Shown here: one piece after another, positions 3 to 41,300 of the stretch | Layout of the letters: the number at the start of each line of letters is the position of its first letter | How positions within the stretch are numbered: the first letter of the stretch is position 1 | NCBI GenBank assembly: GCA_014193115.1 | Contig: BJHQ01000005.1 | Coordinates: forward strand, 50,982-114,981 | Origin: Planctomycetota bacterium | GTDB taxonomy: Bacteria > Planctomycetota > UBA11346 | DNA length: 64,000 nt | Direction of reading: 5' to 3' | Position numbers and translations under genes: made by a program | Notes under the pieces: generated by a model | Seen by the model: the letters and a program-made list of their open reading frames with translations, nothing else | Told to the model about the DNA's origin: nothing | The model's database searches: none

Positions 3-452
3 GTCGCCAGCACCAAGCGCAGCTATGGCCAGGTCCGGGATCGCAGCCTGCCCCATCGCGTCGTCGTGCTCGGTCTGTGCCACCACGACGGCCGTTATCT
101 TGTGGCCAAACGTCCTGCCGACCGCCACGCCGGCGGGATGTGGGAACTGCCCGGAGGCAAGCGCGAGGTGGGTGAAGACGATCGCGTCGCATTGGCGAGG
201 GAATTAACTGAGGAACTTGGCGTCGAGCTGCTCGCCGCCCGCCACCTGATGCGCTACAGCTACAATTATCCTGATCGGGCTCTCACCTTTCAGGTCTATC
301 GCTGCCGCCTGTTCGATCCTCAGAACGCCCGGGCGTTGGACGGCCAAACCGACCTGCGCTGGGTCACGCCCCAGGGATTGCTCGCGCTGTCCTTCCCCCC
401 GGCCAATGCTGCGATCCTTGCCAGATTGCGCCGCTATCATCGGATTCTCTGA
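3..452 (+). CDS. NUDIX hydrolase (MutT-like); N-terminus unresolved or outside window
   Basis: Nudix box GGKREVGEDDRVALARELTEELGV (GX5EX7REUXEEXGU). The reading frame is open back to the window edge with no in-frame ATG upstream of VLGLCHHDG. Confidence 0.7.
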   Translation, partial: VASTKRSYGQVRDRSLPHRVVVLGLCHHDGRYLVAKRPADRHAGGMWELPGGKREVGEDDRVALARELTEELGVELLAARHLMRYSYNYPDRALTFQVYRCRLFDPQNARALDGQTDLRWVTPQGLLALSFPPANAAILARLRRYHRIL

Positions 453-469
453 TCCGCACCAATCACGAC

Positions 470-877
470 ATGATCGGAATACCCATGATCCGAAAAACCT
501 TCTCGCTGTACGCGCTGATCCTGATCATCGGCCTTACCGGCTGCATGGCGCGATCCGACGACTTCGTCGCCAGCCGGCTGTACCTTGGCCTCTCGAATAA
601 AGATGGGGAGATTTCCCAGGAGGATATCAGGGTTTTCACCGACCTTGAAGTGACGCCACGGTTCCCCGATGGCCTGACGATCTACCAGACCGAAGGCCGA
701 TGGCGGTCGAAAGATGGCACGATCGGCAAAGAGCGTTCCGTGGTCATCGAGATCATCCACCACGGCACCGCCGAGGATCACGCCCGCATCGAGCAGATCA
801 TCGACCGCTACAAGGCCCGTTTCCGCCAGGAATCCGTGCTGCTGGTGGTGACCCGGCCGACGGTCGAGTTCCGTTGA
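470..877 (+). CDS. DUF3574-family lipoprotein
   Basis: Signal peptide with lipobox LTGC. Conserved DUF3574-like segment YLGLS..GEISQEDIRVFTDLEVTPRFPDGLTIYQTEGRWRS...VVIEIIHHGTAEDHARIEQIIDRYKARFRQESVLLV. Confidence 0.6.
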   Translation: MIGIPMIRKTFSLYALILIIGLTGCMARSDDFVASRLYLGLSNKDGEISQEDIRVFTDLEVTPRFPDGLTIYQTEGRWRSKDGTIGKERSVVIEIIHHGTAEDHARIEQIIDRYKARFRQESVLLVVTRPTVEFR

Positions 878-1410
878 ACGTTCCGCCCGCCACCGGCGAC
901 CGCCGCTTTCAGCCGTATTATTGCGAGGAGAACATCTGGCATCTCGCCGCCGATCCGGCGCTGGGTGAGGGTGAGCGGGCAGCGTTGGTGATCAGTGGAA
1001 CCGGCGGGACCGTCGCGTTCTGGGAGCAACGTGCCGGGCCGGAGAACGGTCCGATCCTGTGGGATTACCACGTCGTGTTGCTGGCCAGCGGTCCGGCGTG
1101 GACCATTTGGGATTTTGATTGCCGCCGTGGCTGTCCGCTGCCTGCGGCGGCTTGGCTGGCAGCCTGTTTTCCATGCCCGGAACGGATCCGGTTGCGGTTT
1201 CAACCCAGATTCGCCTGGTTTTCAGCGGAGGACTGGCGAAACCGATTCAGCAGCGACCGTGCCCACATGCGCGATGCCGCTGGCGGTTGGCTGCAACCAC
1301 CGCCACCCTGGCCGGCAATCCAGGCAGGGGATCTGACACTGGACCTGGCCATCGCAGCAGCCCGCCAAGGATCCGACCTGCGCGGTCTTTCAGAACGCCT
1401 GCGAGTTTGA
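874..1410 (+). CDS. Protein N-terminal glutamine amidohydrolase homolog (Ntaq1/WDYHV1, Nt_Gln_amidase family); probable TTG start
   Basis: YYCEENIWHL matches eukaryotic CYCEENIWKL and GPILWDYHVVLL matches GPVIWDYHVVLL. SDRAHMRDAAGGWLQPPPPWP matches [21 protein letters not shown]. The Cys-His-Asp triad positions are conserved. Confidence 0.7.
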   Translation: MNVPPATGDRRFQPYYCEENIWHLAADPALGEGERAALVISGTGGTVAFWEQRAGPENGPILWDYHVVLLASGPAWTIWDFDCRRGCPLPAAAWLAACFPCPERIRLRFQPRFAWFSAEDWRNRFSSDRAHMRDAAGGWLQPPPPWPAIQAGDLTLDLAIAAARQGSDLRGLSERLRV

Positions 1411-1722
1411 CCAGATAGCGTACAGACGATCCGCGAGATGAAACGGTCATGATGCTCATCCTTGCCTGTCCAGGCTGGGCTTGAGCAAAGATACATCGCT
1501 TTCGCGTGGGCGGCAAATGTTCCATGATCGGTTGTGGCTCGCCACTGCTCACGTTCGATCCGTTTTGGCAAGGGACATGGCGTTCCTGGCCCAGGCATTT
1601 CGCCACAGCGCAAGCCGCTGATTTCCCTCGGCCAGGCCAGCATGACCACGAACCGGAGCGGAACCGGATCAACCGCCGGTTCTGCGCGATAGCCATTTCC
1701 CAAAGGTGGGTATGACCCATCC

Positions 1723-3524
1723 GTGCTTGCCGAGCCGCTTCCTGGGTTGAAGAACAGCGTCGCCCGCCCGAGTCGGCTCCGGATCGTGGATCTGCTGATG
1801 ATTCTGGGGATCATCGGTGTGGTGGTCGTTGCCATGTCCAGTCCTGGACATCCGGGCGGTGGTCCGGTCCAGCGCCAGGTCGCCATCGATCTGTCCTTCG
1901 CGGCGCTGCCCGGATACACCCTGGCATCGCTCCTGCGCGGCATGGCCGCCTATGCCATTTCGCTGGTTTTCACCTTGCTGGTCGGCTATTGGGCGGCGAA
2001 GCACGTAGCGTCCTCGCGGGTGCTGCTGCCGCTGCTCGACCTGTTGCAGAGCATCCCGGTGCTCGGATTCATGCCGGTGCTGGTGATCGGGTTGATCACG
2101 CTTTTCCCAGGATCGGACACCGGTCTCGAACTGGCGGCGATCCTGATGATCTTCACCGGGCAGGTGTGGAACATGACGTTCAGCTTCCACCAGAGCCTGA
2201 CTGCATTGCCCAGGGATCAGGTCGAAGCGGCGGAAGCCTTCCGCTTCGGCTGGTGGCGGAAGCTGCGTTGCCTGGAGCTGCCCTTCGCCACCACTGGCCT
2301 GGTCTGGAACAGCATGATGAGCATGGCCGGCGGCTGGTTCTTCCTGATGATCAGCGAATCATTTCGGCTCGGCGATCAGGACTTCAGGCTGCCTGGCATC
2401 GGGTCCTACATGAGCGTTGCCATGGAACGCGGTGATTGGACGGCGATGGTCGCCGGAGCGGCTGCCATGATCGTGATGATCGTGGTGCTCGACCAGCTGC
2501 TGTGGCGGCCGCTGGTGGTGTGGGCGGAACGGTTCCGGAGCGAGGAGTCATCGAGCGTCGTGGCGCAGCGATCGTGGGTCCTCGATCTGCTTCGGCGCTC
2601 GCGTCTCATCACCAGCATCCGCCATCTGCTGGCTCCGCGGAATCCGCAGGTTCCTGAGCGCAGCGGCCGGCCCGCTCTGCCGGTTCAGCCCACTGCGGCA
2701 CCCCAGCCTCGCTTCGGCCTGGCGGCCGTTCCGCCCGGACTAGCTGAGCGCATCGGCCAGTGGTTGGCCTGGGCCGGACTGGTGGTGCTGGTCGCCGCTC
2801 TGGTCTGGGGTTCTTGGGGTCTGATTGGACTGCTGGTGCAGGTCCCATGGAGCGATCCCGGCGAACGGCCAGAGGTCACTGGCTGGTCGGAGATCCTCGG
2901 CGGGACCGGCCTGACCGCACTGCGTGTCCTCGGCACCGTCGTCTTGGGCACGCTCTGGGCCCTGCCGGCCTGGCCATCGGCCGGTCGCCGCGCTGGTCGC
3001 AGTTCCTGCAGCCGGTGGTGCAGGTCGCCGCGTCTTTCCCCGCGCCGATGTTGTTCCCGCTCTGCCTGCTCGCATTCAGGGCCATCGGCCTGCCCCTCGG
3101 GGTCGGGTCGATGCTGCTCATGCTGATGGGCACCCAGTGGTACATCCTGTTCAATGTCATTGCCGGATCCCAGGGCATCCCATCGGATCTGCGGGAATCG
3201 GCCGCATCCTTCCGGTTCAGCCGGTGGCGGCGCTTCTGGACCTTGGAGGTCCCCGCGGTGTTCCCGAACCTGGTTACCGGCTGGGTCACCGCCGCCGGCG
3301 GTGCGTGGAACGCCTCGATCGTCGCTGAATACCTGACCTGGCACGGCGTGGTCACGTCGACGGTGGGCATCGGATCGACCATCAGCCAGGCGACCGCGCA
3401 TGGCGACCATCCCGGGCTGGCTGCCGCAGTGACCTGCATGGCGGTGGTGGTGGTTGCCATCAACAACACCTTGTGGCATCGCCTGTCCGCCCTCGCCAGC
3501 AACAGCTTTTCCCTGAGCAAATGA
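1723..3524 (+). CDS. Fused tandem ABC permease (NitT/TauT family, two BPD_transp_1 domains), interrupted by an apparent -1 frameshift near 2960-2970
   Basis: Two EAA loops: EAAEAFRFGWWRKLRCLELPFA and LRESAASFRFSRWRRFWTLEVPAVFP. Frame 1 reads ...VLGTLWALPA and frame 0 continues GLAIGRSPRWSQFLQPVVQVAASFPAPMLFPL, a typical permease segment. One missing base in ccggcc joins them. Confidence 0.7.
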
Positions 3525-3525
3525 G

Positions 3526-5319
3526 GTGACCGTGGCGATTCCCGATTCGGGCCAGAACCTGTGCGAGGTGGTCGGCGTCTCCCACGAGTTCCGGCAACCC
3601 AATGGCAGCCCGCTCACGGTGCTGCGCGACATCACCCTCGGGATTCGTCCGCGCGAGGTCATCGCCCTGCTCGGCCCGTCGGGCTGCGGCAAATCGACCC
3701 TGCTGCGGATCCTCGCCGGGCTGATCCAGCCGACCCAGGGAACCGTGCTCTATCGCGGAGCTCCCTTTCCCGGGATCAACCCCGGGATGGCGCTAGTCTT
3801 CCAGAGTTTCGCGTTGTTCCCGTGGTTGACGGTGGCTGAGAACATCCGCACGGTCCTGGAGGCTGCCGGCCTGACGCCGGGCGACTGCGCGGAACGGGCG
3901 GCCCATGCGATCAAGCAGGTCGGTCTGATCGGGTTTTCCGGCGCCTATCCCCGGGAACTTTCCGGCGGGATGAAGCAACGGGTGGGCGTCGCCCGGGCCA
4001 TCGCCCTGGATCCGGAAATCCTGTTCCTGGACGAGCCGTTCTGCCATGTCGACGCCCTGACCGCTGAAGGGCTGCGGGCCGAGGTCCTCGATCTGTGGGC
4101 GGCGCCCGGCGGCAATCCGTCTTCGATCCTGGTGGTCAGCCACGACATCGCCGAGGTCGTGCAGATGGCCGACCGCATCGTGCTGCTTGGGGCCAATCCT
4201 GGCCAGGTCCGGCAGATCGTGGCCAATCCCCTGCCCAGGCCACGGGATCTGCGCTCGGCTGCCGCTCAGCAGCTGATCGATCGCATGCATGACCTGATCA
4301 CCGGTCATGAACTGCCCGACCAGCAGCCCGACCAGACCGTGCTGGCGGCGAAGCCTGACCGCTTGGCGTCCCTGCCCTCTGTCCGCGCCAACCAGGTGAT
4401 GGGTCTGCTGGAGATGCTCGACTCGCGGGGTGGTACCGAGGATCTGTTCCGCTTGATCAAGGACACCGGCCACGAGTTCGGATCCTTGATCCAGGTGGTG
4501 AAGGCGGCGGAGCTGCTCGGCTGCGTCACCACTCCGAAGCGCCAGGTGGTGCTGAACGATGACGGCCGGAACCTGGTCCGCGCCGACCTGCCGCATCGGC
4601 CTGCGTTGTGGCGTGCCTGCCTCGAAAAGGTGGCCATCATCAACCAGATGGTCGAATTGGTGCGGCAACGCGGAGCAGTAGGCCTGAGCCGAGAGGTGCT
4701 GGTCGAAGCGCTGATCCTGGCCCTGCCGGGCGAGGACTATGACCAGCAGTTCGCCACCTTGATCGCCTGGTGCCGGATCGGCGAGCTGCTGAATTATGAG
4801 AGGAAAAACGGTGTCGTCTCGATCGCCACACCGACACGCCACATGCAGATTCCCCGGATCGACCTCGCCCCGTACCTGGATCCGCGGCGGATCCTGCTGA
4901 TGGAAGGCCAGCCAGCCAAGGCCGATGTGCTCGTTCGCCTGGCCGGTCTGTTCGCCACTTCGCCGGCGGTCGGCGATGGGCCAGCCTTCTCTGCCGCAGT
5001 CATGTCCCGCGAGGCCCTGGCCAATACCGGTGCCGGCCACCGCGTGGCGCTGCCCCACGCCCAGCTCGATTCGATCAGCGAGGTCGTGGCCGCCATCGCG
5101 GTGATCCGCGCCGGATGCGATTTCGCTGCAGCCGACGGCCAGACCGTGCAGGTCGTGGCAATGATCGCCGCACCGACCCGGGATCGGCCACGCTATTTGA
5201 AATTGCTGTCGGCGATCGCTGCCAGGCTCAGCCAGGAGGAGGTGCGTGAGCGGATCGTGCAGGCCAAGCATCCGGATCAGGTGATCGCGGCGATGGTTGA
5301 TCACGCAGTCCCTGGGTGA
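3526..5319 (+). CDS. ABC transporter ATP-binding protein (NitT/TauT-type) with a C-terminal AAA-associated-like middle domain and a PTS EIIA-2 (IIA-Ntr-like) domain
   Basis: GTG start with GAGG RBS. Walker A GPSGCGKST, signature LSGGMKQRV, Walker B ILFLDEP. C-terminal GHRVALPHAQLDS...VQVVAMIAAPTRDRPRYLKLLSAIAARL resembles PTS_EIIA_2 and retains the PH histidine. Confidence 0.75.
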   Translation: MTVAIPDSGQNLCEVVGVSHEFRQPNGSPLTVLRDITLGIRPREVIALLGPSGCGKSTLLRILAGLIQPTQGTVLYRGAPFPGINPGMALVFQSFALFPWLTVAENIRTVLEAAGLTPGDCAERAAHAIKQVGLIGFSGAYPRELSGGMKQRVGVARAIALDPEILFLDEPFCHVDALTAEGLRAEVLDLWAAPGGNPSSILVVSHDIAEVVQMADRIVLLGANPGQVRQIVANPLPRPRDLRSAAAQQLIDRMHDLITGHELPDQQPDQTVLAAKPDRLASLPSVRANQVMGLLEMLDSRGGTEDLFRLIKDTGHEFGSLIQVVKAAELLGCVTTPKRQVVLNDDGRNLVRADLPHRPALWRACLEKVAIINQMVELVRQRGAVGLSREVLVEALILALPGEDYDQQFATLIAWCRIGELLNYERKNGVVSIATPTRHMQIPRIDLAPYLDPRRILLMEGQPAKADVLVRLAGLFATSPAVGDGPAFSAAVMSREALANTGAGHRVALPHAQLDSISEVVAAIAVIRAGCDFAAADGQTVQVVAMIAAPTRDRPRYLKLLSAIAARLSQEEVRERIVQAKHPDQVIAAMVDHAVPG

Positions 5320-7055: not shown

Positions 7056-10000
7056 ATGGAGCTCCCCATGCGACTGAGCCGTTTTCCGGTTTGGATCTAC
7101 CTCGTATTTGCCCTGGCCCTGATGGCGGCGATCCCTGCGGTGGAGACCGTCCCCTTTGGTACGGGCCGACTGATCGGCGACGTCGGAGTCGACGGCGTCC
7201 GCCTCGACTGGAACCTCGCGGCGGAAGGGGGCTATCTGGTCGAACGGCGCTCGGATGGCCGGTTCGTGGAGGTTGCTCGGCTTCCCGCCGGTGCCACCGG
7301 AATGACCGATCCGGTTCGCTTCGGGCAGTTCCGCTGGCGGGTCACAGCACTCGATCGCCGTGGTCGGCCAGAGTCGCGATCGGCCGAGCTGGTGCTGGCT
7401 GTGGAGGTGGTGCAGCGGGATGCAGGCGGAACCGTGCTGCGCTACGGCGATACGCCCAGATCAGATCTGGTTGGCGCCACTGCGTCGCCGCTGGCCGCTG
7501 CGGGGCTCACCGACCCGGCCGTTGCTCAAGCCAATGCCGTCACTTTGAGCGGCGATTACCGCATCGACGCCCTGCTCGGCGATGCCCTGCAACCTGGATT
7601 TACGCCGGTGTCCGATCTGAAATTCGCCTTCTCCACCGCCCCCGGCACCGTCCCCAGCGAAGGGATCAAGGCGAATTACCGCCTGATCTTCGCACGGTTG
7701 GCCCAGATCATCCCAGTCACTTGCACCGAGGTCGCCACCGGCGGCAACATCCTCATCAAACTCGCCCCGGTCGGCTATGGGATGGCAGGCCCCGGCCTGG
7801 TCATGCTCAACGCGAGCTACGACCGCACCGGCGACACCAATGGCTTTCGCAATCCGCCAGGATCCCACGGCTTCCAGGCCCTGGTCCATGAACTCGGGCA
7901 CGCCCTTGGGCTCAAGCATCCCTTCGACGGCAACATCCACCTTCCTCCGGCCGAGGATACCCAGGCGCACACGGTGATGACCTACAATTTCTCCGCCAAT
8001 GAACCCGGGACGTTCATGCCCTACGATATCCTGGCGCTGCAATACCTGTACGGGAGGCCGACCGCCGGGACCGGGGGCACCTATGCCTTCTCGACCCCGT
8101 GGACCTATCAGCGCAACGGGCAGACCTGGTTCGCAACGACCTGGACCACCCGCCAATGCCTCTGGGGGACCGGGGCAGACGTGCTCGATTTTTCTGGACT
8201 GGCGGCAGGGTCCTACCGGTTCGATCTCAATCCCGGAGGCCGCCTGGGAACCACCGGTGCGGTATCGGCAAGCACCTTCACCAACGGCACGGTTCTGGCC
8301 TACGGTTCATCGTTTCCGGCCATCGTCACCTCCATCGGCAATGACGAGGTGACGCTGAGCAGCCCAGCCAATCTGATCAGGGGCTATGTCGCCGGACGCA
8401 CGTGCGGGGCCGACCGCATGCTCAGCGGTCGTCCGGACGATCGCCTCGACCTGTCGGCCTTTCCCCGCAGTGCGGTGCAACGGACTCGTCAGGGCGACGA
8501 CCTGCGCCTCGACCTGCCGAGCGGGATCGGTTCGATCACCATACCCGGGTTCTATGCCGCGGGCTGGATCCAGGTGGTCTATGCCGACAGCCATCCGCCG
8601 GTGGCCTCCAGCCAGGATTTGCAGGCGATCGAGAACCTGGCGCTGCCGATCACCCTGGCCGCCAGCGATGCGGATGGAGACGCACTGGCTTGGACGGTGC
8701 AGGCGCCAGCACGGGGCCGCCTGCTCGGGACGGCGCCTTCGCTGATCTATCTGCCGCCGGCCAATTGGACTGGAACCGACACGGTCGCGTTTTTCGTGAA
8801 CGATGGCAAGGAAACGTCGAACACTGCCCAGGTGTCGATTGCCGTCCGTGCACCTGGCGTTACCCCGACCGTGGAAGCCGGACCCGACCGCTCCACCAAC
8901 CGCTTCACGCCCATCACCCTGTCCGGCACCGCCACCGACGCATCGGGTCAGGCGCTGTCGCTGACCTGGTCCCAGGACTCCGGCCCTGAAAAGACGGTGT
9001 TCACCAGCCCGGTTGGCGGGTCGGTGACCGCCGCTTTCACCGCGGTCGGCACCTACCAGCTGCGCCTGAGCGCCACCAATGGCACCGCTACTGCCAGCGA
9101 CACCACCACCGTCACCGTGGTTCCCAGCCAAAATCCCGGGGTCGTTTCGTTCACCGCCGCGACCGTTGCGGTGCGCGAAGCCTCCGGACGGGTCACGGTC
9201 ACCGTCCAACGCACTGGTGGGGATCACGGCCAAGCGTCGATCTCATGGAGGACGGTGGCGATCACGGCCACCGAAGAAGATTACATGCGCGGCGTTGGTG
9301 GCATCGTCAGCTGGAATGACCAGGATGACGAGACCCAACAGATTGACCTCTCCATCTACGACAACCTTCTCGTCGATGGTCCGCGTACCTTCCGGTTTGA
9401 ACTCTATCGGCCCACCGGCGGGGTCGTGCTCGGATCACCGGCAACCCTGCTGGCGACCATCGTCGATGATGACGGGGTCAACCGGCCGCCGACCGCCACG
9501 TCGGCGAGCGGGAGCGTGGTTCAAGACGGCTCCCTGCCCTTGGTGCTGACCGCATCCGATCCGGACAACGACCCGTTGAGCTGGACGGTTCAAGCTCCGG
9601 CCCACGGCGTCCTTGCGGGCACTGCGCCGCATCTGACGTACACCCCGGACAGTGGCTACCGCGGCACGGATGCCGTGGTCTTCAGAGTTTCCGATACCCG
9701 GGCCCAATCGCCCAGCGCGACCGTGGCCATCACCGTGCAGGCGGTGAACCGTCCGCCCAGGCCAAGCGCCGGTCCCGACCGGAAGCTGGTCCTGCCCGCC
9801 TCCATCGTCCTGGCCGGAGGCGGCTCTGATCCGGATGGGGATTCGCTGGCGTGGTCGTGGACCAAGGTCAGCGGGCCAAGCGCGCTCACCATTGCCAGCC
9901 CGACCGATCCGCAGTCGTCGGCCACATTCGCCGGCGCCGGTACCTACCGGCTCCGCCTGGCCGCCTCCGACGGCACCGCCACCGTCGCCGACGAGGTCGT

Positions 10001-13000
10001 CTTCATCACCAGGACGAACACTGCTCCAGTCGCCAATGCAGGTCCTGATCGGGTGCTGTCGAGCCCAGGAGCAGTGACAATCAACGGGGAAGGACCTGAT
10101 GCTGATGGCGATCCCGTGCAGGCGCTGTGGACCCAGGTTTCTGGTCCGGCTGCCGCGGTGATCGACCAGCCGCGTCAACTGACAACGTCCATCCGCTTTC
10201 CAGTGACCGGGATCTACCGGCTGGTGTTGACGGTGGCCGACGGCCTGGCAACGACCAGTGACGAGGTGGTGGTCTCGGTGGGGAATCCTGGCGTGGCCCT
10301 GGATACTATTGAGTCGAAGGGCAATACCTCGTTGCTGAAGCATCCCATTGACAAGAAATACTTCGCCCGACCAGGAACGGGGACGCCGGTCCAGATCAGC
10401 AATCTGGGTCAGCAGATTTACGAAGGCATATATTCCGGCTGGACCCTGCTCGCGGCAGAAAATCTCAACAGCGAAAATCGTGCGCTCTGGCGCAACGAAT
10501 CAGGCCATTACCTGCACATCTGGCATCTGAATGCAAATTGGCAATGGACTTCCTCAGAAGGGCAGTGGAACTTCGGGACGGCCGAGGCGAACGCCCTCGA
10601 GGTCGCATTCCAAATTGATGCTGACGGGAATGGGACGATCGGCGGACCAGTGAATCAAGCCCCGACGTTCACCACCCATCCGCCGAACGCCGTGGTGACC
10701 GCAGGTCAGACCGCGACGTTCACCGTCGTCGCCAGCGGTACCCCGGCGCCGACGTACCAGTGGCAATCCGCACCGGCCACGGGCGCGTTCACCAACATCA
10801 GCGGCGCGACCGCAGCGAGCTACACCACGTCGGCGACGACGCTGGCGCAGAGCGGTACCCGCTTCCAGGTCATCGCGACCAACAGCGTGAGTGCGGTGAC
10901 TTCGGCCGTGGCGACGTTGACGGTCAATCCCGCCCCGGTCGGCCCGACGTTCACCACCCATCCGGGGAACGCCGTGGTGACCGCAGGTCACACCGCGACA
11001 TTCGCCGTCGTCGCCAGTGGCACCCCGACGCCGACGTACCAGTGGCAATCCGCACCGGCCTCGGGCGCGTTCGCCAACATTAGCGGCGCGACCGCGGCGA
11101 GCTACACCACGCCGGCGACGACGCTGGCGCAGAGCGGTACCCGCTTTCAGGTCATCGCGACCAACAGCGTGAGCGCGGTAACTTCGTCGGTGGCGACGTT
11201 GACGGTCAATCCCGCCCCGGTCGGCCCGACGTTTACCACCCAACCGGTGAACGCCGCGGTGACCGCAGGTCAAACCGCGACGTTCACCGTCGTCGCCAGC
11301 GGCACCCCGGCGCCGACGTACCAGTGGCAATCCGCACCGGCCTCGGGCGCGTTCGCCAACATTAGCGGCGCGACCGCGGCGAGCTACACCACGCCGGCGA
11401 CGACCTTGGCGCAGAATGGTACCCGCTTCCAGGTCATCGCGACCAACAGCGTGAGTGCGGTGACTTCGTCGGTGGCGACGTTGACGGTCAACCCCGCCCC
11501 GGTCGGCCCGAGGTTTACCACCCAACCGGTGAACGCCGCGGTGACCGCAGGTCAGACCGCGACGTTCACCGTCGTCGCCAGCGGCACCCCGGCGCCGACG
11601 TACCAGTGGCAATCCGCACCGGCCACGGGCGCGTTCACCAACATCAGTGGCGCGACCGCGGCAAGCTACACCACGCCGGCGACGACCTTGGCGCAGAACG
11701 GTACCCGCTTCCAGGTCATCGCGACCAACAGCGTGAGCGCGGCAACTTCGTCGGTGGCGACGCTGACGGTCAATGTGACCGCGGGCGCCAATCTGGTGCT
11801 GAACTGGACCTTGGACGAGTCCAGCGGTACGGGCGCTGCCGATGCTTCCGGCCGCGGCAATACGGGTGCGGTGGGCGGCGGCGCGACCTGGGTCGCCGGC
11901 AAGGTCGGCGGGGGGCTCCAGTTCGATGGGAACAGCGGGGCCGTGGTCGCCACAAACGTAGGCGGCCTGCCAAGCGGCAATCAGCCGCACACCCTGGCGG
12001 CCTGGGTGAAAGTGACGGCCCTGCCAGCGAAACGAGCCTGGATCGCCCTGCTGGGGGACGTGGGCAGTGGTGCGCACCATTGGCTGATCAACAGCAATGG
12101 TGTTACCCAGTTCGGGGTGTGGAACGAGAACCAGGTGGCTCCGGTGCTCGGCGTCGGGACCTGGAAACACCTCGCCGTCACCTTCGATGGCGCGACCCAG
12201 ACCGGCTACGTCGATGGGGTGGCGATTGGCAGCACGGCAGCGACCTACAACCTCAAAGGCGTCTCCCTGAAGGTGGCCAGGGCGGTGGATTGGGAGAACG
12301 CATTTAACGGCCTGGTGGATGACGTCCGCGTCTACACCAGAGCCTTGACCGCCAGCGAAGTCTCGGCGCTGGCAGGCGCGACCCTCAACACCGGTCTAGT
12401 GCTCAACTGGAGACTGGACGAGACCAGCGGTGGCGTCGCAGCCGATTCTTCTGGCCGCAGCAATTCAGGGGTGGTAGGCGGAGGCGTGACCTGGACGGCC
12501 GGCAAGCTCGGTGGGGCGCTCCAGTTCGATGGAGTGAACGGCGCAGTGGCCACGACCAGCCTGGGAGGGCTGCCGACCGGCAACCAGGCGCACACCTTGG
12601 CGGCGTGGGTGAAGGTCACTGCCCTACCGGCGAACCGCGCCTGGATCGCCCTGCTCGGCGATGCGGGGGTCGGAGCGCACCACTGGTTGATCTACCGCTC
12701 CGGAGCCACGCAGTTCGGAGCGTGGAGCTCCGGCCAGGTCACGCCTGCGCTTGGCGTCGGCACCTGGAAGCACCTCGCCGTTACCTTCGATGGCACCACG
12801 TTGACCGGATACATGAATGGAGTGGCGATCGGAACCACCGCGGCGACCTTCAGTCTCAAGGGCGTATCGCTAAGCCTGGCCCGAGCCCAGGAGGGTGAAA
12901 ACGCCTTCAAAGGCCAGGTGGATGACGTCCGCGTCTACGCTCGGGCCTTGACTGCCAGCGAGATTTCCGCCCTTGCCGGAACGACTGCGCAAGCGGCCGC

Positions 13001-13145
13001 CCTCGCCTTCACCGAGCCGGTGAACGAAACGGAAACTTCCACCGGCATCGGTGGAGGCAGCAGCGGCTGCGGGCTTGGCAGTGGATTGGCCCTGATCGGC
13101 CTTGCATTCGGGATCGCCCTGGGAGGACGAAGGAGGTGGAGCTGA
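7056..13145 (+). CDS. Secreted multidomain metzincin (M10/serralysin-like) protein with cadherin/PKD/Calx-beta/Ig/LamG domains and a MYXO-CTERM-like tail
   Basis: Signal peptide. VHELGHALGLKHPFDG (HEXXHXXGXXH), Met-turn VMTYNF and YDILALQYLYG. PKD-like and Big/cadherin-like domains, a Calx-beta domain, four near-identical ~94-aa Ig repeats and two LamG-like domains. C-terminus SSGCGLGSGLALIGLAFGIALGGRRRWS. Confidence 0.8.
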   Translation: MELPMRLSRFPVWIYLVFALALMAAIPAVETVPFGTGRLIGDVGVDGVRLDWNLAAEGGYLVERRSDGRFVEVARLPAGATGMTDPVRFGQFRWRVTALDRRGRPESRSAELVLAVEVVQRDAGGTVLRYGDTPRSDLVGATASPLAAAGLTDPAVAQANAVTLSGDYRIDALLGDALQPGFTPVSDLKFAFSTAPGTVPSEGIKANYRLIFARLAQIIPVTCTEVATGGNILIKLAPVGYGMAGPGLVMLNASYDRTGDTNGFRNPPGSHGFQALVHELGHALGLKHPFDGNIHLPPAEDTQAHTVMTYNFSANEPGTFMPYDILALQYLYGRPTAGTGGTYAFSTPWTYQRNGQTWFATTWTTRQCLWGTGADVLDFSGLAAGSYRFDLNPGGRLGTTGAVSASTFTNGTVLAYGSSFPAIVTSIGNDEVTLSSPANLIRGYVAGRTCGADRMLSGRPDDRLDLSAFPRSAVQRTRQGDDLRLDLPSGIGSITIPGFYAAGWIQVVYADSHPPVASSQDLQAIENLALPITLAASDADGDALAWTVQAPARGRLLGTAPSLIYLPPANWTGTDTVAFFVNDGKETSNTAQVSIAVRAPGVTPTVEAGPDRSTNRFTPITLSGTATDASGQALSLTWSQDSGPEKTVFTSPVGGSVTAAFTAVGTYQLRLSATNGTATASDTTTVTVVPSQNPGVVSFTAATVAVREASGRVTVTVQRTGGDHGQASISWRTVAITATEEDYMRGVGGIVSWNDQDDETQQIDLSIYDNLLVDGPRTFRFELYRPTGGVVLGSPATLLATIVDDDGVNRPPTATSASGSVVQDGSLPLVLTASDPDNDPLSWTVQAPAHGVLAGTAPHLTYTPDSGYRGTDAVVFRVSDTRAQSPSATVAITVQAVNRPPRPSAGPDRKLVLPASIVLAGGGSDPDGDSLAWSWTKVSGPSALTIASPTDPQSSATFAGAGTYRLRLAASDGTATVADEVVFITRTNTAPVANAGPDRVLSSPGAVTINGEGPDADGDPVQALWTQVSGPAAAVIDQPRQLTTSIRFPVTGIYRLVLTVADGLATTSDEVVVSVGNPGVALDTIESKGNTSLLKHPIDKKYFARPGTGTPVQISNLGQQIYEGIYSGWTLLAAENLNSENRALWRNESGHYLHIWHLNANWQWTSSEGQWNFGTAEANALEVAFQIDADGNGTIGGPVNQAPTFTTHPPNAVVTAGQTATFTVVASGTPAPTYQWQSAPATGAFTNISGATAASYTTSATTLAQSGTRFQVIATNSVSAVTSAVATLTVNPAPVGPTFTTHPGNAVVTAGHTATFAVVASGTPTPTYQWQSAPASGAFANISGATAASYTTPATTLAQSGTRFQVIATNSVSAVTSSVATLTVNPAPVGPTFTTQPVNAAVTAGQTATFTVVASGTPAPTYQWQSAPASGAFANISGATAASYTTPATTLAQNGTRFQVIATNSVSAVTSSVATLTVNPAPVGPRFTTQPVNAAVTAGQTATFTVVASGTPAPTYQWQSAPATGAFTNISGATAASYTTPATTLAQNGTRFQVIATNSVSAATSSVATLTVNVTAGANLVLNWTLDESSGTGAADASGRGNTGAVGGGATWVAGKVGGGLQFDGNSGAVVATNVGGLPSGNQPHTLAAWVKVTALPAKRAWIALLGDVGSGAHHWLINSNGVTQFGVWNENQVAPVLGVGTWKHLAVTFDGATQTGYVDGVAIGSTAATYNLKGVSLKVARAVDWENAFNGLVDDVRVYTRALTASEVSALAGATLNTGLVLNWRLDETSGGVAADSSGRSNSGVVGGGVTWTAGKLGGALQFDGVNGAVATTSLGGLPTGNQAHTLAAWVKVTALPANRAWIALLGDAGVGAHHWLIYRSGATQFGAWSSGQVTPALGVGTWKHLAVTFDGTTLTGYMNGVAIGTTAATFSLKGVSLSLARAQEGENAFKGQVDDVRVYARALTASEISALAGTTAQAAALAFTEPVNETETSTGIGGGSSGCGLGSGLALIGLAFGIALGGRRRWS
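10650..11780 (+). repeat. Intragenic tandem repeat, ~282 bp x4, >90% DNA identity, encoding Ig-like domains
   Basis: PTFTT(H/Q)P.NA.VTAGQTATFTVVASGTP.PTYQWQSAPA.GAF.NISGATAASYTTPATTLAQ.GTRFQVIATNSVSAVTS.VATLTVNPAPVG is repeated four times. Unit starts are near 10662, 10941, 11226 and 11508. Confidence 0.85.
11780..12975 (+). repeat. Intragenic duplication of a ~590-bp LamG-like (Laminin_G_3) domain, two diverged copies
   Basis: LVLNW.LDE.SG...AAD.SGR.N.G.VGGG.TW.AGK.GG.LQFDG..GAV.T...GGLP.GNQ.HTLAAWVKVTALPA.RAWIALLGD.G.GAHHWLI appears twice. Confidence 0.8.
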
Positions 13146-13280: not shown

Positions 13281-16200
13281 ATGGAGCTCCCCATGCGACT
13301 GAGCCGTTTTCCGGATTGGATCTACCTCGTATTTGCCCTGGCCCTGATGGCGGTGATCCCTGCGGTGGAGACCGTCCCCTTCGGTACGGGCCGATTGATC
13401 GGTGACGTCGGAACCGACGGCGTCCGCCTCGACTGGAACTTCGCGTCGGAAGGGGGCTCCCTGGTCGAGCGGCGCTCGGATGGCCGGTTCGTCGAGGTCG
13501 CTCGGCTTCCGGCCGGTGCCACTGGAATGACCGATCCGGTTCGCTTCGGGCAGTTCCGCTGGCGGGTCACCGCCCTCGATCGCAGTGGTCGACAGATGGT
13601 GCGTTCGGCCGAACTGGTGCTGGCGGTGGAGGTGGTGCAGCAGGATGCTGGCGGAACTGTGCTGCGCTACGGAGATACGCCCCGACCAGGCCAGTTTGGT
13701 GCCGCTGCGTCGCCGCTGGCCGCTGCAGGACTCACTTCCCCGGCCGCGGCCCAAACGGATACCGTCACCATGAGCGGCGATTACCGCATCGATGCCCTGC
13801 TTGGTGATGCCCTTCAGGCCGGATTCATCCCGATCCGGACCTGGACCTACTCCTTCGCCACCGCTTCCGGCAGCGTCCCCAGTGATGCGATCAAGGCCAG
13901 TTATCGTCTGATCTTTGCAAACATGCCCCAGATCATCCCTGCCACCTTCACCGAGGTCGCCATCGGCGGCAACATTGGCATCGGACTCGGCCCAGCCGAC
14001 TATGCGATGGGCGGCGGCGGTTCGATCATCCTCAACCCAAGTTATGACCGCACCGGGGACACCAACGGCTTCCGTAATCCACCAGGTTCGCACGGCTTCC
14101 AGGCCCTGGTCCACGAACTCGGGCATGTCCTCGGACTCAAGCATCCCCATGACGGCAATATCCACCTGCCGCCTGCGGAAAATTCCCAGGCCTACACGGT
14201 GATGACCTACAATTTTTCGGCCAATGAACCGGCGACCTTCATGCCCTACGATGTCATGGCCTTGCAGTACCTGTACGGCAAGCCGGCGGTCGGCGCCGCG
14301 AGCACCTATGTCTTCTCGACCCCATGGACCTTCAGGCGCAACGGGCTGACCTGGTTCGCAACGACCCTGACCACCCGCCAGTGCATCTGGGGGACCGCTG
14401 CCGACGTGCTCGATTTTTCGGCTCTGGCGGCTGGATCCTACCGCTACGACCTCAATCCCGGAGGCCGCCTGGGAACCACCAGTGCGGTGTCGGGAACGAC
14501 CTTTTCCAGCGGCACCGTCCTGGCCCAAGATTCATCCTTCGCTTCCATCATTACCTCCATCGGCAATGACGAGGTGACGTTGAGCAGCCCAGCCAACCTG
14601 ATCAGCGGTTTTGTCTCCGGACGTTCGTGCGGAGCAGACCGCCTGCTTGGCGGCCGTCCGGACGATCGCCTCGACCTGTCGGTGTTCTCGCGCAGCGCGG
14701 TGCTGCGGACCCGTCAGGGCGACGATCTGCGCCTCGACCTGCCAGGCGGGATCGGGTCGATCACCATCGCCGGATTTTATGCCGCGGGGTGGGTCCAGGT
14801 GATTTATGCCGACAGCCATCCACCGGTGGCCTCCAGTCTGAATCTGCAGGCGGTCGAGAACCAGGCCCTGCCGATCACCCTGGTTGCCAGCGATGCGGAT
14901 GGCAATCCCTTGAGCTGGACGGTGCAGGCACCGGGACGGGGCCGCCTGATCGGGGCCGCGCCGTCGCTGATCTACCTGCCGCCAGCCAATTGGACTGGCA
15001 CCGATACTTTCACGTTTTCGGTGAATGATGGCCTGGATTCCTCCAATACTGCCCAAGTATCGATCACCGTCCTTCCGCCTGGCTCCATCCCGTCGGTGGA
15101 GGCCGGACCCGATCGCACCACCAATCGCTTCTTACCCATCGCCCTGTCCGGCACCGCCACGAACGCGTCCGGTCAGGTCCTGGCTCTGTCCTGGTCGCAG
15201 GACTCCGGCCCCGCCCAGACCGTTTTCAGCAGCCCGGCGGGCGGGTCGGCGACTGCTGCCTTCGCGGCCGTTGGCACGTACCACCTGCGCCTGACCGCCA
15301 CCAACGGCTCCGCCACCGCTAGCGACACCACCACCGTGACCGTGGTTCCCAGCTCAAATCCTGGCGTCGCCTCTTTCACCGCCGCGACCGCTGCGGTGAG
15401 CGAATCGTCCGGGCGAGTTACCGTTACCATCCAACGCACCGATGGGGATCACGGTCAGGCCTCGATCTCATGGAGAACGGTGGCGATCACCGCCACCGAA
15501 GACGATTATATCCACGGCATTGGCGGCACCGTCACATGGAATGACCAGGATGACGAGGCCCAGCAGTTCGACCTCTCCATTTACGACAACGACCTCGTCG
15601 ATGGTCCGCGTACGTTCCGGTTTGAACTCTATCGACCCACCGGCGGGGTCGTGCTCGGATCGCCGGCGATTCAGGTGGTGACCATAGTCGATGATGATGG
15701 CGTCAACCGGCCGCCGACTGCCACGTCGGCGAATGCGAGCGTACTCCAGGATGGCGTTCTATCCTTGGTGCTGACCGCCTCCGATCCAGATCATGACCCG
15801 TTGATCTGGACCGTGCGGCCGCCTGCTCATGGCGTCCTGACCGGCACCCCACCCAACCTGAGCTATGCACCTGCCCACGGATATCGCGGCACGGACGCCG
15901 TGGTCTTCTCGGTCTCCGATACCCGGGTCCAGTCGCCCAACGCGACCGTGGCCATCACCGTGCAGGCAGTGAACCATCCGCCTGTGGCGAGCGCTGGTCC
16001 CGACCGGAATCTGGTCCTGCCCGCTGCCATCGCCTTGGCTGGAGGCGGTTCAGATCCGGATGGCGATTCGCTGACCTGGTCGTGGACCAAGGTCAGCGGG
16101 CCAAGCGCGCTCACCATTGCCAATCCGACCGATCCGCGTTCCTCGGCCACGTTCGCCGCCGTCGGCACCTACCGGCTCCGCCTGACCGCCTCAGACGGCT

Positions 16201-16679
16201 CTGCCACCGCCGCCGACGAGGTCGTCATCGCCATCAGGGCCAACACCACCCCGGTCGCGAATGCGGGTCCCGATCTGGTTCTGTTGGGTCCAGGATCAGC
16301 CACGATCGGCGGGCAGGCCCCTGATGCTGATGGCGATCCGGTGCAGACTTTATGGACTCAGGTCTCCGGCCCAGTTGTCGCGGTGATCGACCAGCCGCGC
16401 CAACTGGCGACTTCCATCCGCTTCCCGGTCACCGGAATCTATCGGCTGTTGTTGACCGTGACCGACGGCCTGGCTTCGACCAGCGATGAGGTGGTCGTAT
16501 CGGTTGCCGTCCGGCGCATGATCGAGATTCGCCTGGTCCCCAATGGGGTGGATGCCGCCATCCAACTGGACGGCCGAAATCCGGATCAGGTCAGGCCTGA
16601 CGGCACTGCCCAGTTCACCACCTCGGCTTCATCCAACCACGTGGCATCCTTCCTGACGCCTCCGAGAGGAAAGAACTGA
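13281..16679 (+). CDS. Truncated paralog of the upstream metzincin protein: protease, cadherin-like, PKD and Calx-beta domains only, with no Ig/LamG region and no C-terminal tag
   Basis: About 85% aa identity to residues 1-1075 of the 7056..13145 product, including HELGHVLGLKHPHDG. Homology ends near 16497 and a unique ~60-aa tail follows. The ~75 bp upstream of the ATG are almost identical between the two genes. Confidence 0.75.
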   Translation: MELPMRLSRFPDWIYLVFALALMAVIPAVETVPFGTGRLIGDVGTDGVRLDWNFASEGGSLVERRSDGRFVEVARLPAGATGMTDPVRFGQFRWRVTALDRSGRQMVRSAELVLAVEVVQQDAGGTVLRYGDTPRPGQFGAAASPLAAAGLTSPAAAQTDTVTMSGDYRIDALLGDALQAGFIPIRTWTYSFATASGSVPSDAIKASYRLIFANMPQIIPATFTEVAIGGNIGIGLGPADYAMGGGGSIILNPSYDRTGDTNGFRNPPGSHGFQALVHELGHVLGLKHPHDGNIHLPPAENSQAYTVMTYNFSANEPATFMPYDVMALQYLYGKPAVGAASTYVFSTPWTFRRNGLTWFATTLTTRQCIWGTAADVLDFSALAAGSYRYDLNPGGRLGTTSAVSGTTFSSGTVLAQDSSFASIITSIGNDEVTLSSPANLISGFVSGRSCGADRLLGGRPDDRLDLSVFSRSAVLRTRQGDDLRLDLPGGIGSITIAGFYAAGWVQVIYADSHPPVASSLNLQAVENQALPITLVASDADGNPLSWTVQAPGRGRLIGAAPSLIYLPPANWTGTDTFTFSVNDGLDSSNTAQVSITVLPPGSIPSVEAGPDRTTNRFLPIALSGTATNASGQVLALSWSQDSGPAQTVFSSPAGGSATAAFAAVGTYHLRLTATNGSATASDTTTVTVVPSSNPGVASFTAATAAVSESSGRVTVTIQRTDGDHGQASISWRTVAITATEDDYIHGIGGTVTWNDQDDEAQQFDLSIYDNDLVDGPRTFRFELYRPTGGVVLGSPAIQVVTIVDDDGVNRPPTATSANASVLQDGVLSLVLTASDPDHDPLIWTVRPPAHGVLTGTPPNLSYAPAHGYRGTDAVVFSVSDTRVQSPNATVAITVQAVNHPPVASAGPDRNLVLPAAIALAGGGSDPDGDSLTWSWTKVSGPSALTIANPTDPRSSATFAAVGTYRLRLTASDGSATAADEVVIAIRANTTPVANAGPDLVLLGPGSATIGGQAPDADGDPVQTLWTQVSGPVVAVIDQPRQLATSIRFPVTGIYRLLLTVTDGLASTSDEVVVSVAVRRMIEIRLVPNGVDAAIQLDGRNPDQVRPDGTAQFTTSASSNHVASFLTPPRGKN

Positions 16680-38236: not shown

Positions 38237-38375
38237 CCGATCTGGTGTGCCACTCGCGACTGGCCGGTCTGAAATTGCCGCGCTACCGCGGTCGCCATCC
38301 TGGTTAGAACCGCCCAAGCGCAGAGGGCGTTCCGCTCTCGTGCCTCCCGCTGCCGACCGTTCAGGAACCGCCGCC

Positions 38376-41300
38376 ATGGCAATCAACCTTTCACGCATTG
38401 CTCTTCCCGCACTGCTGGCCATTGCGGCCTCGGTACCGGCTATGGCAGGGGATGCAGACATTCCGATCTCGGAGCTGGATGGATCGAGCAAGATGGATTG
38501 GTCGACTTTCAAGCTGCCTGGGGCGGTCTATCCAAAAGAAGGGTTCGGCCCGGGCGGTTGGTACAAAGGCCCGGTCAACAAGAAGCTGTATGATCGGCAG
38601 CATCCCAAGCCGAACGGAGTTGGGATTCGCGCTGGTGGGTATAACGGCGCTTTGGCAGGCGGCGCCCGCGGCCGCTACGAACTGCTCTACATCCGCACCC
38701 GCTTTCCTGATGATATGCGCGAGCAGATCACCGAAATCGGTGCGAACAACCTGATGGAGATCGTCAATCGCTGGTTCGTCGACGCGAGCTACAATACGTT
38801 TTCGATCACCACCACGGTCACGCCCGTGCTGACCATGCCGTATCCGATGCGGTACTATGATACGTATAATCCGGTGCACGATGCCGCTGTTCCGATGTCA
38901 GGTCTGGATGCGTTCACCGCCGATGCCGACACGGCTGCAGCAGTCGCCGGGTATAGTGGAGGATTCGACCTGCGCAGCATTCGTCTGAGTGGTTTGACCA
39001 CCTGGCCTTTTGGCGGTCTGGGCGGCGGTGGTCGTACCTGGTACAAGACCGACGGAATCGGCCTGTATGTGCACGAGCTCGGCCACGCCATCGGTCTGCC
39101 CCACGCAAACTTCTGGGATACTGCCGGTCGCAGTATTTTCGGCGCAACCGACGCGATTTTCCAAAACTATCGGTACTGCATCGAAAACATCGAATACGGC
39201 GATCCCTGGGATGTCATGGGGAGCGGCCTTAACCGACCAGGCCACTTCAATGTTCTTTTCAAGAACAGCCTGGGCTGGCTGACCGAAGACCATGTGCTCG
39301 ACATCACCGAGAGCACCACATTCCGCATGCATGCATTCGATGTGGACCGTTTGGATTCCGGAAAGATCTATGCGGCCCGGATGTCGAAGCATCCCGGCGA
39401 GTTCACCGATCCGCAGTTCTGGTTTGGCTATCGCAACCGCAAGATCAATCCGACCGGGAACAATGCTCCCTTCCCGCAGTACGCGAATGTCGATTTCATG
39501 CCCCACAGCCTGCAAGTGCACATCAATGCGGCTGATTTCTACACCCAGAAGAACGGAAATGACAATTCTCGCGCTCCCAATGAAGTACTGTTGGATGTGA
39601 CCCCGGGAACGCCTCCGGGACAGAACGATGGCGGTGTCGCTGTTGGGCGCACGTTCAGTGATCCCGCTGGCAATTTCCATGTGACGGTGGTCGATGAGGT
39701 GAACAGCGAACCGAATGCCCTGGATGTGGTGGTCAAGCGCGGAGACTTCACAAGCAATCGTCCGCCGATGGTCAGCATCGAGCCGGTCGGCGCCACCTGG
39801 ACTCCCGGCAAGCCGTTGCTGGTGACGTATCCTTATAGCGCCACCACACAGATCGCCGCTGATTTCTCTGACCTCGTGAAGTTCAAGGCCACAGCCAGCG
39901 ATCCGGACGGCGACGCCCTGGCCTATTACTGGGAATTCGGCGACTGGAAATTCGCCTCGAAGAATTCAGACCAGATCAGCTACGCCTATCCGAAGTCCAG
40001 CGTACCGTTGATCACTCCCGGAAATGGCAACGTCCTGATCTATGACCCTGCGCAGAAAGGCCCGCGCGGCCAGTTGTTCACCGTGCGCTGCACCGTGACC
40101 GACATGAAGGGTGGGATCGCCATCGCGGAATTCCCGGTCAACGTCGGCATGAAGGAGTTCCCAGCGTTCGATGCTGCCGATACCGGTGGCCGCTTCCGTA
40201 CCAACATCCGCGGTCGGATCCTGGACCAGGCCGGCAAGCCGGTGGTCGGAGTGCGGGTGACCGCCCAGGGGCCGATTACTGTCTACGCCTACTCGGACTC
40301 GGATGGATATTACCTGTTGTCCGGCCTGATTCCGAACCAAGGCTACGTGTTCAGCCCAGTCAAAGAAGGCTTCAACTTCAATGGCAAGGATAACGCCCAG
40401 GCATTGACCGATAGCGTGGCATCGTCCAGTCCTATCACGGTCCCCGCTGGACGGGATCTGAACGATTTCAATTTAATCGCCCGCAAACGGCATGAAGTTT
40501 ATATTGATACTTTGGCGGCAACATGGAACGACGCGAATCTCAATGGCCAGGTGGATGGGGGTGAGGTCACCCCAATCCTGACCGATGGTAAGGTAACCAT
40601 CATCGACCAGATCGCAGAACCGGCGACCGGGAAGGTTCCGGTGATTTTCCGGGTCCGCCGCGAAGGTCCGGCAAAGCATGTGAAGAGCTATGATCGGGAT
40701 TATGAGATCACCGAAGACTTCAAGGATAATTGGCTCTGCGTTCGTTTGTACACCGGTGGCGGGACTGCGACTAAGGATGACGTCGATTACGACCTGTGGA
40801 CCACGTTTCTCGACATGCCCTTCCGGCTTTCCCAGCCGACCTTTATTGGCGGTGTTAGACAGCCGACGAATCACTCCGAATTCAAGACTTATTCCGGTCG
40901 TCCACCATTGCTGAATGATACCAATCCCAATGTGGAATCAGGAACCGTGACGGTGGTGAATCCTGAGAAGCCCACAGCCATTCGTACGCACGATTCTTTT
41001 CCAGCTAGAGGAGCTCCGCCTGACTACGCCACCGGGAATCAAGCGGACCGCTACGTAGTCATCCGCGGTACGATCAACTTGCCCGGCATTGGCATCAGCA
41101 GCAGGCCGGATGGAAGTTTTGTCTATCCGGAAACGAACGGTCTTGGCGAGACCTACACCGACATCGTGGCCGTGGTCAATGCCGACTCGGTGGCTGAAAA
41201 CCCCGAGACCATCTCGATCATGATCCCGCACAGCCCGGATTATTTTGCTGCGAAATGCGTTGCGAGCGTCAAGGTGATCAGCCACCCGAGCAACGGGCTG

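Follow-up and report, generated by a model that had tools for sequence, protein, structure and literature searches.

A Planctomycetota homolog of the eukaryotic N-terminal glutamine amidohydrolase NTAQ1 and a possible N-degron role for its bacterial relatives

In the literature, NTAQ1 figures as a eukaryotic enzyme of the Arg/N-degron pathway, and no such pathway (ubiquitin/UBR/ATE1) is known from bacteria. A stretch of 64,000 nucleotides from a Planctomycetota bacterium (contig BJHQ01000005.1, positions 50,982 to 114,981), referred to as a whole as the window, carries at positions 874-1410 of the plus strand the coding sequence of an Ntaq1-like N-terminal glutamine amidohydrolase, which raises the question of what an enzyme of this kind would do in a bacterial cell. 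A preliminary description of the window, made from its letters alone, had taken the gene for a bacterial homolog of Ntaq1 with an intact Cys/His/Asp triad. We confirmed that 874-1410 encodes a real gene belonging to the NTAQ1 family, and then weighed its probable activity and its possible roles.

Family membership, catalytic residues and predicted fold

The protein translated from 874-1410 (178 amino acids, TTG start, TGA stop at 1408-1410) matched the PF09764 (Nt_Gln_amidase) profile hidden Markov model with an E-value of 5.7e-31 and a score of 108 bits, to be compared with a cutoff of 27, over positions 2-155 of the 184 of the profile, and the proposed homology was thereby borne out. Beyond PF09764, no Pfam or NCBIfam family was matched by the protein; NCBIfam holds no model for the NTAQ1 family. 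In a sequence search of the PDB, chains of human NTAQ1 (3C9Q, 4W79, 6KGJ and 8JJF-8JK2) were the only relatives recovered, with E-values of about 3e-27, and a BLASTP comparison with mammalian NTAQ1 gave 38% identity over 149 amino acids (E 2e-34).

The catalytic triad of human NTAQ1 consists of Cys28, His81 and Asp97 (PMC4214742), and its residues Glu29, Asp79, Tyr80, His148 and Met149 hold the alpha-amino group and the first backbone atoms of the substrate (PMC11168063). According to the latter work, a study of substrate complexes published in 2024, this grip sets a distance to the triad that fits the side chain of Gln. When the protein of the window was aligned to 4w79, the human triad corresponded to C17, H66 and D80, as had been claimed, and the five substrate-binding residues had identical counterparts in E18, D64, Y65, H131 and M132. 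On the plus strand of the window, the codons for the nucleophile Cys17 and for Glu18, the counterpart of the alpha-amino-recognizing Glu29, occupy positions 922-927 (PMC4214742, PMC11168063). Those for W63-D64-Y65-H66 (human W78-D79-Y80-H81), a motif in which the His is the catalytic base and the Asp and Tyr bind the N-terminal backbone of the substrate (PMC4214742, PMC11168063), lie at 1060-1071, that for Asp80, the third triad residue, at 1111-1113, and those for His131-Met132, again involved in alpha-amino recognition (PMC11168063), at 1264-1269.

Conservation at these positions was counted in a MAFFT alignment of 264 bacterial and metagenomic homologs and 120 vertebrate sequences. In the bacterial and metagenomic set, all eight triad and N-terminus-binding positions were conserved to at least 98%, with the triad residues kept in 263-264 of the 264 sequences (Cys17 in 263, Asp80 in 264), Glu18 in 262, and His131 and Met132 in 263 each. 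The 120 vertebrate sequences gave 93-100% at every position except the catalytic Cys, which was present in 102 of them (10 had Ser and 6 a gap). Taken together, these results show that the gene encodes a bona fide, selectively maintained NTAQ1-family protein with the full set of catalytic and N-terminus-recognition residues.

We also analyzed the structure predicted for the protein. An AlphaFold2 model built with 33 homologs reached a mean predicted local distance difference test score (pLDDT) of 94.6 and a predicted template modelling score (pTM) of 0.90. In a Foldseek comparison of this model with the PDB, the top 17 matches were all human NTAQ1 chains (template modelling score relative to the query, TMq, 0.83-0.87; E about 1e-15), in line with the superposition on the human enzyme that the preliminary description had suggested, and the next match, a protein-glutaminase from Chryseobacterium, was weak (TM 0.39, E 4e-3). 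As modelled, the protein adopts the NTAQ1 alpha-beta roll / papain-like fold.

All the motifs quoted in the preliminary description were found in the translation of the 178-codon open reading frame (ORF), namely YYCEENIW at residues 15-22, GPILWDYHVVLL at 58-70, IWDFD at 78-82 and SDRAHMRDAAGGWLQPPPPWP at 127-147, and the C-terminal block that it had regarded as shared with the eukaryotic protein is present as SDRxHM...PPPPWP. The start site was assigned as it had been proposed there: the TTG codon (874-876) overlaps the TGA stop (875-877) of a gene for a DUF3574 lipoprotein, in the form of TTGA (874-877), no further start codon lies between 874 and the Cys17 codon, and TTG 874 is the sole start whose N-terminus agrees with those of the homologs in the alignment. 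On Logan contig L081 (DRR125126), which encodes an identical protein, genes were called independently, and the same start was picked there, giving 178 amino acids. A longer ORF at 700-1410 was rejected as a gene, being a shadow in high-GC DNA, and so was an antisense ORF of 131 amino acids (808-1203, minus strand), whose 'homologs' in 58 loci mirror the conserved Ntaq gene.

Bacterial relatives and proposed activity

A word-indexed search returned 270 proteins with E <= 1e-3, and an exhaustive search of 1.84 billion representatives returned 1588 clusters at 50% identity with E <= 1e-3, 911 of which had E <= 1e-10. The phyletic distribution that had been put forward as a check proved to be wide, since at least 354 of 185,579 species-representative genomes (about 0.2%) encode a relative with both motif patterns. 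Locus and lineage counts refer here and below to the best 80 genome loci, among which Myxococcota account for 21 or more, Planctomycetota for 16, Chromatiaceae for 13, Lentisphaeria and Melainabacteria/Obscuribacterales for 4 each, and Spirochaetales and Thermoanaerobaculia for 2 each, the remainder being found in Bdellovibrio, Oligoflexales, Bradymonadaceae and others. Among the cultured carriers are Plesiocystis pacifica SIR-1, Minicystis rosea DSM 24000, Polyangium fumosum, three Halochromatium species, Lamprocystis purpurea, Lamprobacter modestohalophilus and Thiohalocapsa sp. ML1.

In a rough neighbour-joining tree, computed without support values, not rooted as bacteria versus eukaryotes and with vertebrates as the only eukaryotes included, Chromatiaceae, Lentisphaeria, Spirochaetes and most Melainabacteria formed lineage-coherent clades, Myxococcota and Planctomycetota were intermixed, and the vertebrates attached deep and not beside any shallow bacterial group. 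This topology is indicative of bacterial copies that would not be recent captures from animals. The breadth and age of the family among bacteria, together with clades that largely track taxonomy, argue for a maintained cellular function. Bacterial members of PF09764 are already known to databases, some sources labelling them 'protein N-terminal glutamine amidohydrolase'; the gene of the window is an ordinary, database-recognizable member of that family, to be taken as a lead and not as a new kind of system.

The explanation that best accounts for these observations is that of a small cytoplasmic cysteine amidohydrolase with a papain/transglutaminase fold, which probably shares its chemistry with eukaryotic NTAQ1. 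A cytoplasmic location, with no signal peptide, is deduced from the fact that the catalytic Cys is already residue 17 and leaves no room before it. Judging from its conserved residues, the protein very likely deamidates N-terminal Gln to Glu on proteins or peptides by way of a thioacyl intermediate on Cys17. In the proposed mechanism, E18, D64, Y65, H131 and M132 would hold the free alpha-amino group and the first backbone atoms of the protein or peptide, and this grip would set the N-terminal Gln's side chain against Cys17, which together with His66 and Asp80 would form the thioacyl intermediate, with release of ammonia and an N-terminal Glu remaining on the substrate.

The preliminary description had considered a bacterial copy to be functionally unexplained, given the different N-degron logic of bacteria. 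That judgement does not wholly hold, since a possible downstream step is provided by Bpt, a bacterial relative of ATE1 that adds Leu to N-terminal Asp or Glu and so yields a ClpS/ClpAP substrate (PMC9351520), and whose genes are also on record outside Proteobacteria, Leptospira being one example (PMC12493166). Since some bacteria have a Bpt that acts on N-terminal Glu, a Gln-to-Glu amidase has a logical next step, in which the N-terminal Glu would be leucylated by a Bpt-type leucyl-transferase and the resulting Leu-Glu protein would be handed by ClpS to ClpAP. We therefore advance, tentatively, the idea that N-terminal Gln may serve as a tertiary destabilizing residue feeding the Bpt/ClpS Leu/N-degron route. 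That the carriers run a complete three-tier hierarchy like that of eukaryotes, leading from Gln (Ntaq) to Glu (Bpt) and on to ClpS-ClpAP, is a somewhat doubtful extension of this idea.

Confidence in the N-degron link stays low because genomic linkage was not found, and several results weigh against it. In tblastn searches with ClpS, ClpA and Aat of E. coli, no homolog was detected in the 64-kb window or in the related loci L001-L082, two weak AAA+ fragments being all that was recovered. A Bpt probe, its identity confirmed by Pfam as ATE_N plus ATE_C, gave no match either in the window or within about 8 kb on either side of the 80 other copies. These searches bear on linkage only, the DNA covered being the 64 kb of the window and about 16 kb for each of the 80 other loci. 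An all-against-all clustering of the ORFs of these 80 loci and the window revealed no neighbour common to different lineages, so that context lends the N-degron link no support, and no paper dealing with bacterial NTAQ1 homologs was found in the literature searched.

As the main rival reading, the same conversion of N-terminal Gln to Glu might have a housekeeping role in the turnover of peptides and proteins, in which it would prevent the pyroglutamate cyclization that blocks aminopeptidases and would salvage amide nitrogen. The conserved residues that bind the N-terminal backbone suit any substrate with a free N-terminus, short peptides included, and the missing genomic link to ClpS, Aat and Bpt speaks in the same direction, as do the varied housekeeping and metabolic neighbours of the family (MutY, ABC transporter, aminotransferase, homoserine dehydrogenase and PEP carboxylase). 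We consider such a role unlikely, however, since the patchiness of the family, with about 0.2% of species genomes matching the scan patterns, would be odd for a general need, and since fusions to protein phosphatases point to protein substrates.

In these fusions, which come from Myxococcota-type sequences, an LMWPc (low-molecular-weight phosphatase) domain precedes Ntaq at the N-terminal side in the representatives of three 50%-identity clusters (P0190, P0191 and P0196), and the same arrangement occurs in a metagenome-assembled genome (MAG) of Myxococcota (L074:4818-5999, plus strand), where the CX5R P-loop 'CSGNLCRS' is intact. The phosphatase fusions weakly favour a protein-directed enzyme; if the fused phosphatase acted on phosphoarginine (pArg) and not on phosphotyrosine (pTyr), both domains would be tied to the editing of degradation tags. 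Other fusions were seen as single cases, one of DUF309 to Ntaq (P0170, 277 amino acids) and one of UDPGP (UTP-glucose-1-phosphate uridylyltransferase) to Ntaq (P0202, 658 amino acids). Long 'fusion' ORFs of up to 746 amino acids in Sandaracinaceae and Nannocystaceae loci were rejected as Arg-rich read-through artefacts of high-GC DNA.

A shift of the bacterial branch to another substrate, such as free glutamine, gamma-glutamyl compounds, internal Gln of proteins in a reaction like that of a protein-glutaminase or transglutaminase, or another small amide, appears quite improbable. Despite the fact that the papain/transglutaminase fold supports many chemistries (PMC10318531), that the identity to the animal enzyme is just 38% and that the protein-glutaminase of Chryseobacterium is a distant structural match, the residues by which human NTAQ1 fixes the alpha-amino group and sets the Gln-length distance are all kept almost without exception; the protein-glutaminase match is weak, and no other Pfam or NCBIfam family was matched.

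A recent acquisition from eukaryotes, a contamination or a secreted effector directed against a host's Arg/N-degron pathway is largely refuted, and we give it hardly any credence, since, although the family was first described from eukaryotes and many carriers are predatory or socially complex (Myxococcota, Bdellovibrio, Bradymonadaceae), the gene has mutY/DUF3574 on one side and an ABC transporter on the other, in a chromosome that also carries pheS, recJ, mreB and glgB, its GC content (0.648) matches that of the window (0.640), its product has no signal peptide, the related Planctomycetota MAG LBMAG53 has the same 178-amino-acid gene, free-living phototrophs (Chromatiaceae) carry it too, the vertebrates lie deep in the rough tree, and no Ntaq copy was found in plasmid and phage collections.

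NTAQ1-like chemistry, with an N-degron role as a tentative proposal, is thus the explanation that we retain. A sizeable bacterial branch, widespread yet unstudied, keeps the triad plus every residue that gives the human enzyme its specificity for free N-termini, and it hints that N-terminal Gln may be a degradation signal in bacteria. No tertiary destabilizing residue or N-terminal amidase was reported for prokaryotes in the literature searched; the question of tertiary destabilizing residues in bacteria becomes directly testable, and cultured carriers exist. If the three-tier reading were true, the NTAQ1-ATE1 module of eukaryotes would go back to a bacterial one, Ntaq-Bpt, which may have come from Myxococcota- or Planctomycetota-like lineages.

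Genomic surroundings of the gene and of its relatives

Two genes precede Ntaq on the plus strand. The first, at 3-452, is the 3' end of a mutY-type adenine glycosylase gene, whose frame is open to the left edge of the window and which encodes a NUDIX_4 C-terminal domain (PF14815, E 6.3e-23); on L081 the full gene codes for 359 amino acids with HhH-GPD and NUDIX_4 domains. The second, at 470-877, is the DUF3574 lipoprotein gene (PF12098, E 6.6e-30), with the lipobox LTGC. The preliminary description had placed Ntaq between a NUDIX hydrolase and a DUF3574 lipoprotein, of which the lipoprotein was correctly recognized; the supposed hydrolase is the C-terminal domain of MutY, and both genes lie upstream, an ABC transporter following downstream past a gap of 312 bp (1411-1722). 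Because of the stop/start overlap, the DUF3574 and Ntaq genes are probably co-transcribed. A functional module of the two was considered and rejected, as tblastn searches of 82 loci detected DUF3574 only in the window and on L081 and beside none of the 80 other copies.

The GC content at third codon positions (GC3) of the Ntaq gene is 0.68, somewhat lower than that of neighbouring genes (0.73-0.85). Around the gene, no Rfam element was matched and neither a terminator consensus nor a plus-strand promoter consensus was found; a single promoter-like site on the minus strand (293-265) was discarded, since it did not exceed the yield of shuffled sequences.

Elsewhere, the window encodes pheS, recJ, mreB, glgB, a lipid A acyltransferase and a Pst-like phosphate transporter, together with extracytoplasmic function (ECF) sigma factors, a sigma-54 activator, a Ser/Thr kinase and three giant surface proteins. 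The closest Ntaq relative, in the P0001 cluster (84% identity), includes GDY12708.1 (LBMAG53_15860), a 'hypothetical protein' of 178 amino acids from a Planctomycetota bacterium. The RecJ of the window shares a 90% cluster with GDY12730.1, which is encoded on the same 328-kb contig as GDY12708.1. The window is accordingly a piece of an ordinary chromosome, from a Planctomycetota bacterium close to MAG LBMAG53.

The ABC transporter downstream of Ntaq shows two peculiarities. In its permease (1723-3524, plus strand), two BPD_transp_1 domains are encoded in different frames, one at amino acids 85-258 of ORF 1723-3126, whose tail resembles out-of-frame junk, and the other at amino acids 68-234 of ORF 2760-3524, the two ORFs overlapping by 367 nucleotides. 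This suggests a frameshift near 2900-3000, which could mean that the gene is a pseudogene, was assembled wrongly or is recoded; the same permease is split on the independent contig L081, in calls of 467 and 137 amino acids. The ATPase (3526-5319, plus strand) has the unusual order ABC_tran, AAA_assoc_C and a C-terminal phosphotransferase system (PTS) EIIA-2 domain, which suggests an ABC transporter under nitrogen or sugar PTS control. The giant predicted surface proteins, all on the plus strand, are encoded at 7056-13145 (2029 amino acids), 13281-16679 (1132 amino acids) and 38247-46253 (2668 amino acids); Laminin_G_3, PKD, Calx-beta, cadherin-like, Ig and W_rich_C are among their domains, to which the largest adds a weak match to Peptidase_M66.

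As to the relatives, the neighbours that recurred in the survey of loci were the antisense shadow ORF, generic kinases, ABC ATPases and lineage-specific housekeeping genes, the latter comprising an alpha/beta hydrolase in Nannocystales, an aminotransferase, homoserine dehydrogenase and PEP carboxylase in Chromatiaceae, and also an enoyl-CoA hydratase. Ser/Thr kinases were present in 12 of the 80 loci, in 4 of them at a distance of at most 1.5 kb (ORF cluster 4), and a His_Phos_1 phosphatase and a Metallophos phosphoesterase were also found nearby (phospho-signalling sites L002:5629-7086 and 8685-9437, and L004:8951-9682). The recurrence of kinases may just reflect their abundance in Myxococcota and Planctomycetota.

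The gene of a relative with 63% identity, P0003, lies on a contig of 158 kb (JGI 3300059473), where it follows genes for a PLDc_2/ResIII/Helicase_C/DUF3427 protein and an HNH_2 protein (282-4492 of the stretch reported for it), a context that resembles a defence island and that the window does not have. No PADLOC defence model matched the protein of the window, DUF3574, P0003 or the fusion P0191, and a role in defence or in a mobile element was rejected, there being no plasmid, phage or PADLOC match.

Comparison with known systems

The protein of the window most resembles eukaryotic NTAQ1 (WDYHV1; tungus in Drosophila), with which it has in common the fold, the Cys-His-Asp triad, the residues that bind the alpha-amino group and the backbone, the C-terminal block and a single-domain organization, the two proteins having 178 (window) and 205 (human) amino acids. 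Compared with human NTAQ1, it is shorter by about 11 residues at the N-terminus and about 25 at the C-terminus. The eukaryotic enzyme acts upstream of the ATE1 arginyl-transferase and of UBR-type N-recognins, whereas the fate of N-terminal Glu in bacteria must differ. In a search that did not extend to UBR and ubiquitin components, no ATE-type gene was detected in the window or in the 80 related loci.

Yeast NTA1 and mammalian NTAN1 perform the same step of the pathway, as they deamidate N-terminal Asn or Gln, but they have unrelated folds and belong to unrelated families, NTA1 being nitrilase-like and NTAN1 having 13% identity to NTAQ1 (PMC4214742). Neither family was matched by the protein of the window in Pfam or the PDB. 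The protein-glutaminase of Chryseobacterium proteolyticum (2KSV) and the transglutaminase-like / BTLCP cysteine proteases have a papain/transglutaminase-like Cys-His-Asp core as well, and protein-glutaminase also deamidates Gln, as predicted for the protein of the window. In contrast to the latter, they are secreted enzymes whose targets are internal Gln or peptide bonds, and they show no sequence-family match to it and only the weak structural one (TM 0.39).

The bacterial Leu/N-degron route, with ClpS-ClpAP, the leucyl/phenylalanyl (L/F) transferase Aat and the Bpt of Vibrio vulnificus, is the sole known bacterial route that makes N-terminal Glu, the predicted product of Ntaq, destabilizing, and ATE1, the relative of Bpt, is the enzyme that follows NTAQ1 in eukaryotes (PMC9351520).

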